Source: Desulfomonilia bacterium (lineage in GTDB: Bacteria > Desulfobacterota > Desulfomonilia > UBA1062). From it: a stretch of 64,000 nt of DNA. The notes below the pieces were generated by a model, which made no database searches, was not told the DNA's origin, and saw only the letters and a program-made list of their open reading frames with translations. The position numbers and the translations under genes are program-made. This document shows positions 10,938 to 38,422 of this stretch, piece after piece. Within the stretch, counting starts at the first letter, position 1. Each line of letters begins with the position of its first letter. The stretch spans positions 416,001 through 480,000 of the forward strand of contig JBEKDT010000001.1 in assembly GCA_050014195.1 (NCBI GenBank), written 5' to 3'.

Positions 10938-11840
10938 ATGGAAACCTTCACAAATATAGAATTTCCTGCTGTAAAAAAGTTGGGGAGCGGCAAGGTCAGA
11001 GAGATATTTGATGCCGGCTCCGAGCATCTTCTTATTGTCACTACCGATCGCATCTCAGCCTTTGATGTGATCCTGCCCGATCCAATCCCTTCCAAAGGCT
11101 GTGTCTTAAACCTACTCTCCCTGTTTTGGTTTGAAAAAGGATCATCCATCATCAAGAATCATGTGGTAACTTCAGCCGTGAACGCCTACACGGAGCCATT
11201 TAAGGGAGACAGCCGCCTAGCCGGGAGGTCCATGCTGGTAAAAAAAACCAACCCTCTGCCCGTGGAGTGTATTGTAAGAGGGTACATCTCGGGCTCGGGC
11301 TGGAAAGAATACCTTAAACTCGGCTCCGTCTCCGGGGTGAAGCTCCCTACCGGACTAAGGGAATCAGACCGCCTTCCTGAACCTATATTTACTCCCTCCA
11401 CCAAGGCACAGATCGGGCATCACGACATCAATATCGATATGAAGACCGCAGGAGACCTCGTGGGTCAGTCCCTTATCGAAGAGGTAAAGAGTATCTCACT
11501 TTCAATCTACTCCATGGCGGCGGCCCATGCGCTGGGAAAGGGTATCATCATTGCCGACACGAAATTCGAGTTCGGGCTTTTAGAGGGAGAGCTCATCTGG
11601 ATCGACGAGGCCCTCACTCCCGATTCCTCCAGGTTCTGGCCGCTTGAAGGGTACATGCCGGGAGGGCCGCAGAAGAGCTTTGATAAACAGTTTGTCCGCG
11701 ACTACCTGGAAACTCTGGATTGGAACAAGACAGCACCGGGGCCCAATCTGCCGCAGGACATCATTAAGAAGACCTCTGAGAAGTATATTGCCGCCTATGA
11801 GCTGCTTACGGGAAGAATATTCGCACAAGAACGGGCATAG
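10938..11840 (+). CDS. purC: phosphoribosylaminoimidazole-succinocarboxamide synthase
   Basis: [39 protein letters not shown]. Confidence 0.97.
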
Positions 11841-11893
11841 AATCCGCCCCTGCTGCTTTTTTAGAATGGTCTTTCATGATGCAGGAGCTCTAT

Positions 11894-11929
11894 AAAAAAA
11901 ACCACCACTCAAGAAGGCGGTGGTTTTTT
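11894..11929. terminator. bidirectional rho-independent terminator
   Basis: A-run-ACCACCACTC-AAG-AAGGCGGTGGT-T-run. Confidence 0.8.
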
Positions 11930-12107
11930 AGGAACGAGGATGACACTTTCTCAAGATGCAGGGTTCTTTCCGATCTCAATAAGGAGATGCCGGGGGTACC
12001 GAATAACAGGTCTGCGCGGCTCTATTTTTTATAGTTTCTTCATTTAACCTTATGGTCGGTTAGCCCGCCTAGGGATCGGTTTTTCGAATACCCCAGCTCT
12101 TCTCCCT
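11894..12107 (-). ncRNA. candidate structured sRNA of unknown family
   Basis: long closing stem AGGGAGA..GCUGGGGUAUUCGAA / UUCGGUACCCCCGGC.UCUCCUU with G-U pairs only on minus strand; inner hairpins; upstream sigma28-like promoter; downstream terminator. Confidence 0.5.
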
Positions 12108-12114
12108 AAGAAAT

Positions 12115-12141
12115 GTATCGGCAGCGATGTCGATTGCTTAA
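12115..12141 (-). promoter_or_regulatory. sigma28 (FliA)-type promoter
   Basis: minus strand TTAAG-N14-GCCGATAC, matching the TAAA/TCAAG...GCCGATA consensus. Confidence 0.55.
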
Positions 12142-12203
12142 GCGTATTTCTTGAAAGAAAATTTCATGACGACCAGCGGTTCAATCTGGGTATTCCTCGC
12201 CTA

Positions 12204-12908
12204 TCATCTCAGGTTTTTATGGCCCCCCTGTGCAGACAAGAGATTGTTCACCCAGCTCCGGGCGGAGTCTGATACCGCACCGAAAGGTATCGGGGACCCG
12301 ACGATCAGATCCACAAGATGCTTCAGCATGCGTGCCGTGGCACCCCAGACTACGCCCCCCTCGATCTCAAGGAAATAGATGTTGACGCCCCTGCCCCGGA
12401 AATGAGACCGCTCAGCCATCCAGGCCGAATCACTCAGCGCCTTTCTCAAGGGGACCAGCAGCAGGATCTCGGACTCGCTGTTGATCTTAAAGTCGTACGG
12501 ATAAGGGATGGCACCCACCACCGGCGTGATGTGATATCCCACAATGGATATATGGTCATCCAGTAGGCCCAGGACTTCCACGTCATCCCGGCAGAGCCCG
12601 ATCTCCTCGTGGGCCTCCCGCAGAGCCGTCTCCACCAGGCCCTTATCGCCGGTCTCCACCCCTCCGCCCGGGAAGCAGATCTCTCCCTTGTGGTGCTCAA
12701 CGTCCATGGACCGCATGGTGACAATCACCTGGGGATCACCGTCACTCCAGCACAGGGGGAGCAGGACGGCAGATTCCCGGAGGTCCTCCCGGGGGATGAT
12801 CCTCCTCTTGTGGGCGGCCAGCAGGGTACGGATATAATCCTTCAAGGCCTGCTCACTACCAAGAAGCTCATGGATTCTGGAACCTTGCATGGATGCTTCT
12901 ATTACCAC
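12204..12908 (-). CDS. Nudix hydrolase, CoA pyrophosphatase (NudL/PCD1-like)
   Basis: SAVLLPL, HKGEICFPGG, TALREAHEEIG Nudix box, VWGATA. Confidence 0.92.
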   Translation of the reverse strand: MVIEASMQGSRIHELLGSEQALKDYIRTLLAAHKRRIIPREDLRESAVLLPLCWSDGDPQVIVTMRSMDVEHHKGEICFPGGGVETGDKGLVETALREAHEEIGLCRDDVEVLGLLDDHISIVGYHITPVVGAIPYPYDFKINSESEILLLVPLRKALSDSAWMAERSHFRGRGVNIYFLEIEGGVVWGATARMLKHLVDLIVGSPIPFGAVSDSARSWVNNLLSAQGGHKNLR

Positions 12909-12967
12909 AAAGAGCTTGCCATGAACAGGCTTGACCGCATGAGGTCTTGCTGTATATTATACCACTC

Positions 12968-13555
12968 ATGAGAAGCAAAGGTGCAATCAAGAACTACATC
13001 GTCCTCATCAGAGATCTGGTGAGTGATGTGGAACTCCTCCTGGATGACGACATTGAGCACGATTCTTCGCACAGGTGGAAGGAGCATGCAACACTCATCC
13101 TGGGTAAGATCCTCGGCAAGGATCACACCTATGTCAAACAATTCGCTGGGATAGAGTTCTGCACCCCTTTCTTCGACGACTTTGATGAGTTTATGGAGGA
13201 GGATACCTTCCGGCTCGCCCTGGAGGATGCCAGATCATTCCTCATCTCTCTCATCGACGAGCTTGAGAGCGAACACAACTGTACACCCGGCCTCATGGAC
13301 ATGGAGAGCCTGTTCGCCGAGATGAACCGTTATGTCCTCGCCCGAGTGGGAGACCCGGGTATGCGCAGCAGCCTCCACAACCGGATCACAAGGCTGAGAA
13401 ACGGCATGATGTCAGGCGAGATCTCAGGTGATGAGGTGCGCTACCACATGGAGCACATCGGCTGCCTTGATTCCGGGCTCTACGAGCGCATAGTCCCGCT
13501 CCTGACATGGTATTATATTCAGGGGGCGGGGTTTAAAGGGGCACACAACAACTAA
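12968..13555 (+). CDS. hypothetical helical protein
   Basis: long ORF with genome-like codon usage upstream of purH; no catalytic motif recognised. Confidence 0.7.
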
Positions 13556-35634: not shown

Positions 35635-35833
35635 ATACCCCTGCCGCACGTGATTACTTTAGCCGCCGATCCAAAATGATAATCGGTGCTCCTGCTAGGG
35701 GATTTATCGTATGGTACGTGGGGTGTCAAGCAATCAGAAGATCAAAACACGCTAAAAGAGCACGGCTGTTTAGAGGGGCCGGGATAGGGGTTGACTACTC
35801 GATTCTGGATACTAATTATCTTTCTCCGTGACC

Positions 35834-37555
35834 ATGAAGGCATACCCGAGGGAAGATCTATCCATTGTGCTTTCCGGTGAAGCAGGACAGGGCCTGCAGA
35901 CCTTGGAACAGCTGATGCTGAAGGTCTTCAAGCTCTCAGGATACCATGTCTTTTCCTATAGCGAATTCATGTCGAGGATCAGGGGTGGGAACAACTCCAC
36001 CCAGATACGGATCTCTGCAAAGAGGGTTGCGTCTTACCTCAGAAGGATCGATATATTCGTTCCGCTCAATGCCGGCGCCATGGAACGGTTTCACGACCGG
36101 ATAACCCGTGAAACGGTCATCCTGGGCGATCGTACATTCATTGACAAACAGTACTTCGATGAGGGCTATCCCATTGGGGAGGTACCCATTGGAGAAATTG
36201 CCAGGGGGATCGGCGGACCGGTTTATACGAATATCCTCGTGCTCGGGATATTTGCAGGGCTCTTAGGGCTTGAAATGGGTCTGCTTGAAAATCAGGTGAG
36301 GCAATTCTTCAGCAAAGCCGGAGATGAACGTACCGGCAAGAACATTGATGCGGTAAGGAAGGGCTTCGACACAGGCTCTCACGTGCTTAAATCGGGCCAG
36401 GTCCTTCCCGTCATCACAAAATCGGAAGAAGTGAAGAATGAGCTCCTCATGAACGGTGTCGATGCAATAGGCATAGGAGGTCTTGCCGGAGGATGCACGT
36501 TCGTCTCATCCTACCCCATGTCTCCATCAACCGATGTCCTGGTGTTTTATGCCAGGAATGCACACGATTTCGGGCTGGTGGTGGAACAGGCGGAAGATGA
36601 AATAAGCGCCGTCAACATGGCACTTGGTTCCTGGTATGCCGGGGGGAGGGCTTTGGTGACTACCTCAGGGGGAGGATTTGCGCTGATGGTGGAGGGGGTG
36701 AGCCTTGCCGGATGCATCGAGTCTCCCCTGGTCATCCATATCGGCCAGCGCCCCGGCCCTGCAACAGGCCTTCCTACCCGCACCGAACAGGCTGACCTGG
36801 AGCATGCCCTCTACTCCGGCCATGGTGAATTCCCCAGGCTGATCCTGGCGCCCGGTACCATAGAAGAGGGGTTCTGGCTTACACGCCATGCCTTCCGGAT
36901 GGCAGATAAGTACCATATCCCTGTTTTTATCCTTACGGATCAGCACTATCTCGAATCCAATCATACCTTGAACCGCCTGGATATCCCGGAGCCGTTAAAC
37001 GAGAGCTTTATCAAAGAGACAGACACCGCATATAAACGCTATTTGTTCACGGAAAGCGGCATCTCACCAAGGGGCATACCCGGCTTCGGCCAGGGGCTGG
37101 TTTGCGTGGACAGCGACGAACATGATGAGAACGGATATATCACGGAAGACTGTTCGGTGCGATCTTCCATGGTTGAGAAGCGGCTTCGGAAACTTAAGGC
37201 CATGGAAACCGACACGATAGCGCCGACACTCACCGGAGGGGATGACTATCGGCATCTTGTCGTCGGGTGGGGTTCGACCTATAACGTCGTCAAGGAGGCC
37301 CTGGAAATCCTCCAACGAAAAGACCTCTCCTTCCTGCACTTCTCCCAGGTGTATCCACTCCACCCGAAGGCCCGTGAACTCATCAATCGGGCAAAAAAAA
37401 GGTTCATCATCGAGAACAATGCCACGGCCCAGTTCGGAAAATTGATCAGACTGCATACAGGAATCGAGCTTGATGGGAAGATTCTCAAGTTCGACGGCAT
37501 GCCGTTCATGCTCGAAGAAGTCGTAGAGCAGCTGGATGCCCTGATGGGAAGGTGA
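35834..37555 (+). CDS. 2-oxoacid:ferredoxin oxidoreductase alpha subunit (gamma-alpha fusion)
   Basis: GEAGQG, SRIRGG, YPMSP, EDEISA, TSGGG, RPGPATGLPT. Confidence 0.95.
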   Translation: MKAYPREDLSIVLSGEAGQGLQTLEQLMLKVFKLSGYHVFSYSEFMSRIRGGNNSTQIRISAKRVASYLRRIDIFVPLNAGAMERFHDRITRETVILGDRTFIDKQYFDEGYPIGEVPIGEIARGIGGPVYTNILVLGIFAGLLGLEMGLLENQVRQFFSKAGDERTGKNIDAVRKGFDTGSHVLKSGQVLPVITKSEEVKNELLMNGVDAIGIGGLAGGCTFVSSYPMSPSTDVLVFYARNAHDFGLVVEQAEDEISAVNMALGSWYAGGRALVTTSGGGFALMVEGVSLAGCIESPLVIHIGQRPGPATGLPTRTEQADLEHALYSGHGEFPRLILAPGTIEEGFWLTRHAFRMADKYHIPVFILTDQHYLESNHTLNRLDIPEPLNESFIKETDTAYKRYLFTESGISPRGIPGFGQGLVCVDSDEHDENGYITEDCSVRSSMVEKRLRKLKAMETDTIAPTLTGGDDYRHLVVGWGSTYNVVKEALEILQRKDLSFLHFSQVYPLHPKARELINRAKKRFIIENNATAQFGKLIRLHTGIELDGKILKFDGMPFMLEEVVEQLDALMGR

Positions 37556-37558
37556 GGA

Positions 37559-38422
37559 ATGGGAACGGAATTCGACATTGATTACCCTGCGGATATTGCG
37601 TGGTGCCCCGGATGCGGAAACTATCATATCCTCACGGCGCTCAAGGCCGCTCTTTCGGAGCTGGCACTCCATCCGGCATCGCTCGTCTTCGTATCCGGAA
37701 TCGGACAGGCGGCCAAGACCCCTCAATATCTGAAGACCAACTACTTTAACGGCCTCCATGGGAGATCTCTGCCTGTTGCCACGGCGGTCAAGGTGACGAA
37801 TCCGGAGCTTACGGTCATTGCTCAGAGTGGTGATGGATGCATGTACGGCGAAGGGGGCAACCATTTCCTCCATGCCATTCGAAGAAACCCGGACATCACG
37901 GTGATCATCCACAACAATATGGTGTACGGGCTTACCAAGGGACAGGCATCTCCCACGAGCATGCGGGGCTTTGTTACACCCATACAGGTGGGTGGGGTAT
38001 GCATGGAGCCCTTCAATCCTCTGGCCCTTGCCATTGCCCTGAATGCATCGTTTGTTGCGAGGGCCAATGCAGGGGACGAGGAGCAGACAAAGGAAATCCT
38101 GAAAAAGGCCATCACTCATAAAGGATTCGCAATCGTTGACATATTGCAACCCTGCGTATCATTCAACAGGGTTAACACCTACCAGTGGTACAAGGATCAT
38201 ACGTATTATCTCGATGATTCCCACAATCCATCCGACAGGGATGCCGCCTTCTCAGCAGCAACCCGATCGGACAGGTTTGCCCTGGGACTGATTTATATCG
38301 GTTCAGGAATACCCACCTTCTCCGAGTGTCAGGATGTCTATAAGACCGATCCCCGGCCGCTCTATCAACATATGGCGAGCCGTGAAAAGATCGAATCCTT
38401 GCTGAATGCAAAGAGGATATGA
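37559..38422 (+). CDS. 2-oxoacid:ferredoxin oxidoreductase beta subunit
   Basis: WCPGCG, LHGR, GDG...N TPP motif, [11 protein letters not shown]. Confidence 0.95.

Follow-up and report, generated by a model that had tools for sequence, protein, structure and literature searches.

Does the 363-nt intergenic spacer between the convergent purC and NUDIX genes of an uncultured Desulfomonilia bacterium harbor a gene of its own and, if so, what might its product do? The spacer lies within the 64,000-nt stretch of DNA analyzed here (hereafter the window; contig C1, positions 416001–480000), which belongs to a host genome of 4.2 Mb in 29 contigs (G000). An earlier note, made from the letters of this DNA, had proposed that the minus strand of the spacer encodes a structured small RNA (sRNA) driven by sigma28, the flagellar sigma factor FliA. 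Our analysis indicates that the segment from 12141 down to 11894 very probably is a real structured RNA gene, and the best reading of the data is that it represents a new RNA family, encoded by an independent gene and restricted to one family of uncultured Desulfomonilia. The fuller explanation that we favor, a sigma28-dependent structured sRNA gene whose product would probably act in trans as a post-transcriptional regulator, has slightly better than even chances of being correct as a whole.

Predicted fold of the RNA

The core of the predicted RNA is a rod-like fold of approximately 127 nt (12107–11981, minus strand) composed of four stacked helices, designated P1 to P4. In the closing helix, AGGGAGA..GCUGGGGUAUUCG (12107–12085) pairs with CGGUACCCCCGGC.UCUCCUU (12001–11981); this stem is part of the minimum free energy (MFE) fold and agrees with the domain of about 125 nt, closed by a long stem, that had been described earlier. 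The complete 248-nt stretch folds with an MFE of -74.2 kcal/mol, compared with -60.2 ± 5.0 kcal/mol for 200 shuffled sequences (z = -2.79), none of which folded as well. P1 joins AGGGAGA (12101–12107), where the RNA is predicted to begin (near 12107), to UCUCCUU (11981–11987). P2 joins the near-invariant strand GCUGGGGUAUUCG (12085–12097) to CGGUACCCCCGGC (11989–12001), which carries one bulged base, and 97.3% of its cells are paired in the alignment. P3 is formed by 12077–12081 and 12005–12009, and P4 by GCGGGC (12063–12068) and GCCGCGC (12014–12020), which pair around a bulged G.

The tip of the rod is an apical A-rich region (12021–12062) that begins with a conserved UAACC (12058–12062) at its 5′ end, continues through one or more weak, variable hairpins and finishes with an A-rich 3′ side ending in AGA. 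Across 31 homologues, this region measures 32–43 nt; UAACC and the A-run are conserved, whereas the small hairpins vary by lineage or are absent. It is a candidate seed or protein-contact site. The inner stem (GCGGGC/GCCGCGC) and the two hairpins (AACC/GGUU and CUAU/AUAG) noted earlier all occur in the MFE fold, but the CUAU/AUAG hairpin is not conserved in relatives. Likewise, the four-codon open reading frame (ORF) AUG-AAG-AAA-CUA-UAA occurs here without being conserved among relatives. Some homologues have an open frame that starts with CUG, which on our reading of the alignments is shifted by insertions or deletions of 1–2 nt and was rejected. Because such changes break reading frames and the four-codon ORF is lost in relatives, a coding function is disfavored. 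A K-turn at the P1/P2 internal loop was also considered and rejected, as the bases of this loop are not conserved in the 31-sequence alignment as we read it.

Distribution and covariation

A BLASTN search with the spacer found matches in 11 of the 14 other genomes of its own genus and in none of ten other genera sampled from the family, and the conserved block in the alignment begins exactly at the promoter-like motif and stops exactly where the closing helix ends. Covariance models were built from 12 sequences and subsequently from 26 (model R2). Covariance-model searches located one full-length copy in 26 of the 52 genomes of one Desulfomonilia family, G000 included, covering 5 of its 14 genera. 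With G000 excluded, the carriers comprise 13 of 14 genomes in genus g1, 4 of 5 in g11, both genomes in g23, all three in g7 and 3 of 12 in g5, and no copy was detected in 15 genomes of the nine other genera of the family. The second model returned the same 26 carriers from 122 genomes of the class, with no match in the 70 genomes of the other family. In an even sample of the phylum, 2 of 151 genomes matched, both from genus g1, and none of the 148 sampled genomes outside the family did. When one genome per species was scanned for the exact pattern, 26 loci were returned; judged by eye, 10 were real, all from the known genus g1, and 16 were chance occurrences in unrelated taxa. Metagenome contigs, for which 80 of 99 stretches were fetched and tested, contributed ten strong model matches (100–123 bits), six of them new sequences. 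Two further metagenome matches (L120 and L123; 22 bits, mutually identical) were rejected, as they look like GC-rich coding sequence. One divergent copy, in genome G065 (L090:1501–1624), keeps P1 and P2, has a different GC-rich interior and lacks a CCGATA -10 element; this copy may be decaying or may have been re-wired.

RNAalifold returned the same four stacked helices from an alignment of 12 sequences and again from a MAFFT alignment of 31 sequences made independently. Covariation was then evaluated on two alignments, a model-fitted one of 26 sequences and the MAFFT alignment of 31 distinct sequences; for the latter, we wrote the structure from the G000 fold, and the G065 copy, whose interior is unalignable, was omitted together with L120 and L123. 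Paired cells amounted to 94.7% in the model-fitted alignment and 92.1% in the MAFFT alignment, as against 40–51% and 39–48%, respectively, when the partners were slid. Both sides had changed at 12 of 30 pairs in the model-fitted alignment (shuffled, 5.9 ± 1.5, with 0 of 500 shuffles reaching this number; slid, 3–7) and at 11 of 30 in the MAFFT alignment (shuffled, 6.6 ± 1.5, reached by 1 of 500; slid, 4–9). The covariation score was 0.254 for the former (shuffled, 0.147 ± 0.009; slid, 0.055–0.087) and 0.217 for the latter (shuffled, 0.143 ± 0.008; slid, 0.064–0.103). The shuffle control does not yield a probability for related sequences, whereas the slid controls retain their relatedness and are clearly lower. 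Structural conservation in relatives, which the earlier note had put forward as a check, is thus seen as compensatory changes above both kinds of control.

Covariation is concentrated in P3 (3 of 5 pairs changed on both sides), P4 (3–4 of 6) and a single P2 pair, which is G-C in 15 and A-U in 13 of the 31 sequences. In addition, a U.G wobble in P2 is kept in 31 of 31 sequences. Since kept U.G wobbles would be A.C mismatches on the opposite strand, the minus strand is the functional one, and the earlier observation that the wobble pairs work on this strand alone holds across the homologues.

No Rfam family accounts for this RNA. At gathering thresholds, Rfam 15 gave no match in the window, and at E values of up to 10 the region 11800–12300 gave seven chance-level matches (E 3.9–7.5), of which five fell on the terminator or tail described below, one fell at 11836–11881 and one (mir-1502) overlapped the promoter and P1. 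An Rfam search of seven homologous loci produced four chance-level matches, none of them on the RNA, and a scan for tRNA and tmRNA returned no genes. The impression recorded earlier that the sequence matches no familiar tRNA, tmRNA, RNase P, SRP or riboswitch extends to Rfam, both here and in the seven homologues.

Promoter and candidate sigma28 regulon

Promoters recognized by sigma28 (FliA/SigD/WhiG) combine a -10 element, GCCGATA(A), with a TAAA-like -35 element located 14–15 nt upstream of it. The arrangement TTAAG-N14-GCCGATAC is present where it had first been noticed, at 12141–12115 on the minus strand, with the -35-like element TTAAG at 12137–12141 and the -10 element GCCGATAC, which contains the hallmark GCCGATA, at 12115–12122. 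It occurs once in the window and in none of 100 dinucleotide shuffles. Seven nucleotides separate the -10 octamer from the start of AGGGAGA at 12107, close to the gap of about 8 nt given previously. Among the 30 homologues for which 50 nt or more of upstream sequence was available, the full motif (T[ATC]AAG 14–15 nt before the -10) is kept in 25, across five genera, and CCGAT stands at this place in 29 on our reading of the listing. The motif ends 7–8 nt before P1 in the homologues, while the spacer sequence and the flanks diverge. Four of the five homologues without the full motif retain CCGATA with an altered -35, and the G065 homologue has neither element. A sigma70 promoter scan of 11700–12400 found no sites.

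The genome encodes fliA (TIGR02479, 276 bits against a cut-off of 189.6; C9:178303–178977), whose presence the earlier note had wished to see checked, as well as FlgM and two flagellin-family genes. The conserved motif and the presence of fliA together constitute strong in silico evidence that the RNA gene has a sigma28-type promoter, as originally proposed, and its FliA-dependent transcription in the cell is likely.

The motif also outlines a candidate sigma28 regulon, with members on contigs C1, C3, C4, C5, C6, C9, C10, C11 and C15. TAAAG-N14/15-[GT]CCGATAA lies upstream of the flagellin gene, a flagellin-family (FlgL-like) gene and the flgM operon, and the same -10 as that of the RNA gene precedes these three and fliS. 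The wider motif T[ATC]AAG-N14-15-[GT]CCGATA occurs 30 times in the genome, compared with 9 times when the genome is reversed and 10, 5 and 11 times in three shuffled versions; a crude gene map, 88% of which is coding, places 19 of the 30 occurrences between genes. Sixteen ORFs behind intergenic motifs were scanned. Seven of them encode flagellin, the FlgL-like protein, FlgM, FliS, a rod protein and two methyl-accepting chemotaxis proteins (MCPs); the others comprise an EAL-HDOD protein, a PAS hybrid histidine kinase, PFK, an NlpC/P60 protein, a PilB-like T2SSE ATPase, a LysM protein and three proteins without a family. The -35 form found at the RNA gene also serves genuine motility genes, since TTAAG precedes the flagellar rod gene and TCAAG precedes one MCP (chemoreceptor) gene. 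A stricter motif, T[TC]AAG-N13-15-GCCGATA, gave 10 matches in the genome; the ORFs scanned behind them were non-flagellar, one being GspH/pilin-like, and the flagellar genes were recovered solely by the wider motif with TAAAG and [GT]CCGATA.

The genome also carries hfq (Hfq, 74.3 bits), csrA and fliW. As a separate observation, the flagellin 5′ leader (C11:35360–35485) is approximately 100 nt long and contains stretches rich in GGA, including one at the ribosome-binding site. In our own reading, this leader, together with CsrA and FliW, would fit a FliW–CsrA–flagellin partner switch.

Predicted RNA ends and genomic context

A strong intrinsic terminator composed of an A-run, a GC-rich hairpin and U8 is predicted from the fold at 11894–11929 (minus strand). 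Its U8 ends at 11894, 87 nt past the closing stem, in keeping with the terminator that had been placed about 90 nt beyond the domain. Weak terminator-family cmscan matches align here; a simple terminator scanner did not list the 11929–11894 hairpin and reported only a weak site at 11849–11833. With an A-run on one side and a U-run on the other, the terminator is usable in both directions and is probably shared by purC and the RNA. Between the closing stem and the terminator lies a tail (11930–11980) that is specific to the G000 subgroup, conserved in the eight closest genomes and absent, over its roughly 50 nt, from other lineages. It contains a C/U-rich stretch, CAUCCUCGUUCCU (11930–11942), which in our reading appears anti-Shine-Dalgarno-like. 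In most other lineages, a U-run directly follows P1, so that termination would be brought about by the rod and the RNA would be approximately 130 nt long. This U-run is broken in G000 and its closest relatives (UCUCCUUAUUG), where the predicted RNA extends from 12107 to 11894, or approximately 214 nt.

The flanking genes are purC (SAICAR synthetase; 10938–11840, plus strand; Pfam SAICAR_synt, 1.7e-70) and, upstream of the RNA and on the same strand, a NUDIX gene (12204–12908, minus strand; Pfam NUDIX, 8.2e-13). The latter is coenzyme A (CoA) pyrophosphatase-like, scoring 118 bits against the NCBIfam CoA pyrophosphatase model, under its cut-off of 134. The RNA gene is convergent with purC at every locus with enough downstream sequence to judge. 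Family members that lack the RNA likewise have NUDIX and purC tail to tail, with a gap of 50–100 nt in four of the five genomes examined; the fifth has a NUDIX–purC spacer of approximately 280 nt with no match to the RNA. The linkage of the RNA to purC may therefore be purely historical, the order being ancestral. Elsewhere in the window, a 202-aa ORF without a Pfam or NCBIfam match lies between the NUDIX gene and purH (12947–13555). Genes for the alpha and beta subunits of a 2-oxoacid:ferredoxin (acceptor) oxidoreductase, followed by an SDR oxidoreductase gene, occupy 35828–38422. The segment 39829–42117 encodes a sigma-70-family factor (266 aa) that scores well under the RpoH and RpoS cut-offs and, directly after it, a sigma54-dependent response regulator (476 aa).

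Possible modes of action

In the explanation that we favor, RNA polymerase carrying sigma28 would start transcription at about 12107, and the transcript would fold at once into the irregular P1–P4 rod of approximately 127 nt, with the A-rich loop beginning UAACC at its tip. In G000, transcription would continue through the C/U-rich tail to the terminator at 11894. The RNA would then pair with mRNAs through its loop and, in the G000 subgroup, also through its tail, possibly together with Hfq. The gene displays hallmarks of Hfq-dependent trans-acting sRNAs, namely a promoter of its own, an intrinsic terminator with U8 and hfq in the same genome. A trans-acting regulator appears the most likely product because the RNA would be made together with late flagellar and chemotaxis genes, and a trans-acting sRNA is further favored by the promoter, the terminator, the conserved unpaired segments and the analogy to known sigma28 sRNAs. 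We give base pairing in trans somewhat less than an even chance of being the main mechanism.

Several observations weigh against this explanation. P1 and P2 are conserved in sequence beyond what pairing requires, and 5 of the 12–13 P2 pairs never vary; such invariance is better explained by protein recognition of the helix, or by an alternative pairing, than by a plain scaffold. Apart from UAACC and the A-run, the apical loop is variable in sequence, and the C/U-rich tail is confined to one subgroup. No target stood out. When the apical loop, the P3–P4 linker and the tail were run through duplexfold against 3683 crude start regions, there was no outlier, and the duplexes were long and loop-rich, with best z values of -3.8 to -4.7. 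The best result of a blastn-short search was a 16-nt exact match in a TPR-protein gene, which we judged to be chance (approximately 0.4 expected). As for the promoter, the RNA gene has TTAAG or TCAAG as its -35, as opposed to TAAAG at the genome's own flagellin, flgM and fliS promoters, and the G065 homologue is without a -10. Several genes preceded by the motif are non-flagellar (PFK, NlpC/P60, LysM and the PilB-like ATPase). Finally, fliA scores above the cut-off in 49 of the 52 family genomes, RNA carriers and non-carriers alike, and its co-occurrence with the RNA is therefore uninformative.

The invariance of the closing helix is an argument for a protein-binding RNA, a decoy or scaffold whose near-invariant P1/P2 helix, U.G wobbles and bulge included, would dock a flagellar-checkpoint or RNA-metabolism protein to be titrated or delivered once sigma28 is active. 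We regard this as unlikely, although it would account for the fixed P2 pairs and the U.G pair while P3 and P4 covary freely, and for the failure of the duplex and blastn-short scans to yield a convincing mRNA target. The 5′ and 3′ ends are paired as in 6S and Y RNAs, and possible partners, CsrA and FliW, are encoded in the genome. No partner protein is encoded adjacent to the RNA, however, its neighbors being NUDIX and purC. A CsrA sponge of the CsrB/RsmZ type was rejected, as the single conserved GGA is buried in the P1 stem; a second GGA (CGGAUC) is not kept, reading CCGAUC in G000 and CAGA in others. The more specific version, in which the rod serves as an RNA decoy in the flagellar checkpoint with P1/P2 binding the sigma28 holoenzyme, FlgM, CsrA/FliW or another factor, must be rated a little lower still from the sequence data at hand. 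If true, it would amount to RNA-based feedback on late flagellar expression, as sigma28 would make the RNA itself; to our knowledge, such feedback by an RNA decoy on late flagellar genes has not been described for any bacterium.

The extreme form of a protein-binding role, a 6S-like RNA that sequesters the sigma28 holoenzyme, is not supported. The earlier note had suggested such a promoter mimic or protein sponge and had pointed to two AACCGA words resembling the sigma28 -10 element, but these words are not conserved in relatives. The 6S covariance model has no match in the window or anywhere in the genome, and the architecture differs: the rod of approximately 127 nt ends in a single A-rich tip of 32–43 nt and has no central bubble between two long stems. 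Moreover, seven carriers (G047–G050, G020, G053 and G054) have a canonical 6S RNA at another locus. Overall, the Rfam 6S model finds 6S RNA in 11 of the 52 family genomes, always at other loci (for example, L217, G020:C26:12123–12307). It has no match in the 15 genomes of the window's own genus, which probably have a 6S RNA too diverged for the model.

The convergent neighbor suggests a different role, that of a cis-antisense regulator of purC, acting through a perfect duplex with the purC 3′ region or through transcription collision and thereby coupling purine synthesis to the motile state. The geometry is favorable: the RNA and purC converge at every assessable locus, and by a crude ORF test purC stops 1–35 nt from P1 in 17 of the 27 loci examined, with no purC terminator visible there, so that the purC mRNA would have to run antisense through the RNA gene at these loci. 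This possibility is nonetheless improbable. The NUDIX–purC order is shared with members lacking the RNA, and in G000 and its seven closest relatives the bidirectional terminator separates purC from a core that is still fully conserved. Furthermore, it is the fold of the RNA itself that is under selection, as the covariation and the strand-specific G.U pairs show. It is highly improbable that there is no independent gene and that the element is an elaborate terminator or 3′-untranslated-region stability element of the NUDIX gene with a chance or vestigial sigma28-like motif: although it lies on the same strand, 97 nt past the NUDIX stop codon with no terminator between, resembles a terminator in its P1 and U-run in many lineages and is dispensed with by family members that do well without it, the promoter motif keeps its fixed distance from P1 in 25 of 30 homologues despite diverging surroundings and fails to arise in shuffled windows, and a four-helix rod of 127 nt with conserved internal loops far exceeds what a terminator needs.

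The sRNA gene under sigma28 control therefore remains our preferred explanation, and it would be of interest in several respects. Work on sigma28-controlled sRNAs has hitherto concerned Enterobacteriaceae and Campylobacter (PMC10578931 and PMC11187230), and the present RNA would extend them to an uncultured lineage of Thermodesulfobacteriota, on the strength of a covariation-supported family with an unusually clear promoter and a distinctive rod. A literature search joining Desulfomonil- with FliA or with small RNA returned only unrelated work, and the RNA is probably a new motility-linked regulatory RNA, to judge from its promoter and distribution. With one gene, one promoter and approximately 130 nt, it would offer an experimental entry point to post-transcriptional tuning of motility in anaerobes of peat, sediment and soil. 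Its sequence-invariant helix hints at a further partner. The family, with 31 distinct sequences and a model, is ready for RNA databases.

Comparison with known RNAs

Several known RNAs offer points of comparison. The 6S RNA is a rod of approximately 180 nt with a large central bubble between its closing and terminal stems; it binds the RNA polymerase holoenzyme and serves as a template for pRNA. Like the Desulfomonilia RNA, 6S RNA (Rfam RF00013) has its 5′ and 3′ ends paired in a long, irregular and mostly double-stranded rod and occurs as one copy per genome. It differs in length (approximately 185 nt, as against approximately 127 nt here) and in being made from a housekeeping promoter rather than a sigma28-type one. 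Structured RNAs linked to flagella are also represented in Rfam by Termite-flg and flg-Rhizobiales, which are cis elements upstream of flagellar genes; no Rfam 15 family matched the present RNA or seven of its homologues at E values of up to 5–10.

Parallels in regulation come from flagellar sRNAs of other phyla. In Campylobacter jejuni, the paralogues CjNC1 and CjNC4 are reportedly sRNAs. The sRNA CJnc170 (FlmR) of this species is FliA-dependent, and its overexpression reduces filament length and motility (PMC11187230). The RNA studied here would resemble FlmR in being a free-standing sRNA of the late (FliA) class; the host of FlmR also uses FliW–CsrA. FlmR belongs to another phylum, and no similarity between it and the Desulfomonilia RNA was detected. 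In Escherichia coli, UhpU, MotR, FliX and FlgO are sigma28-dependent, Hfq-binding sRNAs that tune flagellar synthesis by base pairing and are conserved only among some Enterobacteriaceae, as stated by Melamed et al. (2023; PMC10578931). No sequence or Rfam relation to them was found for the Desulfomonilia RNA. The E. coli RNAs are fragments of untranslated regions with a free seed, in contrast to the single rod with paired 5′ and 3′ ends and an A-rich tip predicted here. What the two would share is synthesis set by the flagellar sigma factor and a position behind a metabolic gene, UhpU being located in the 3′ region of one and the present RNA following the NUDIX gene.

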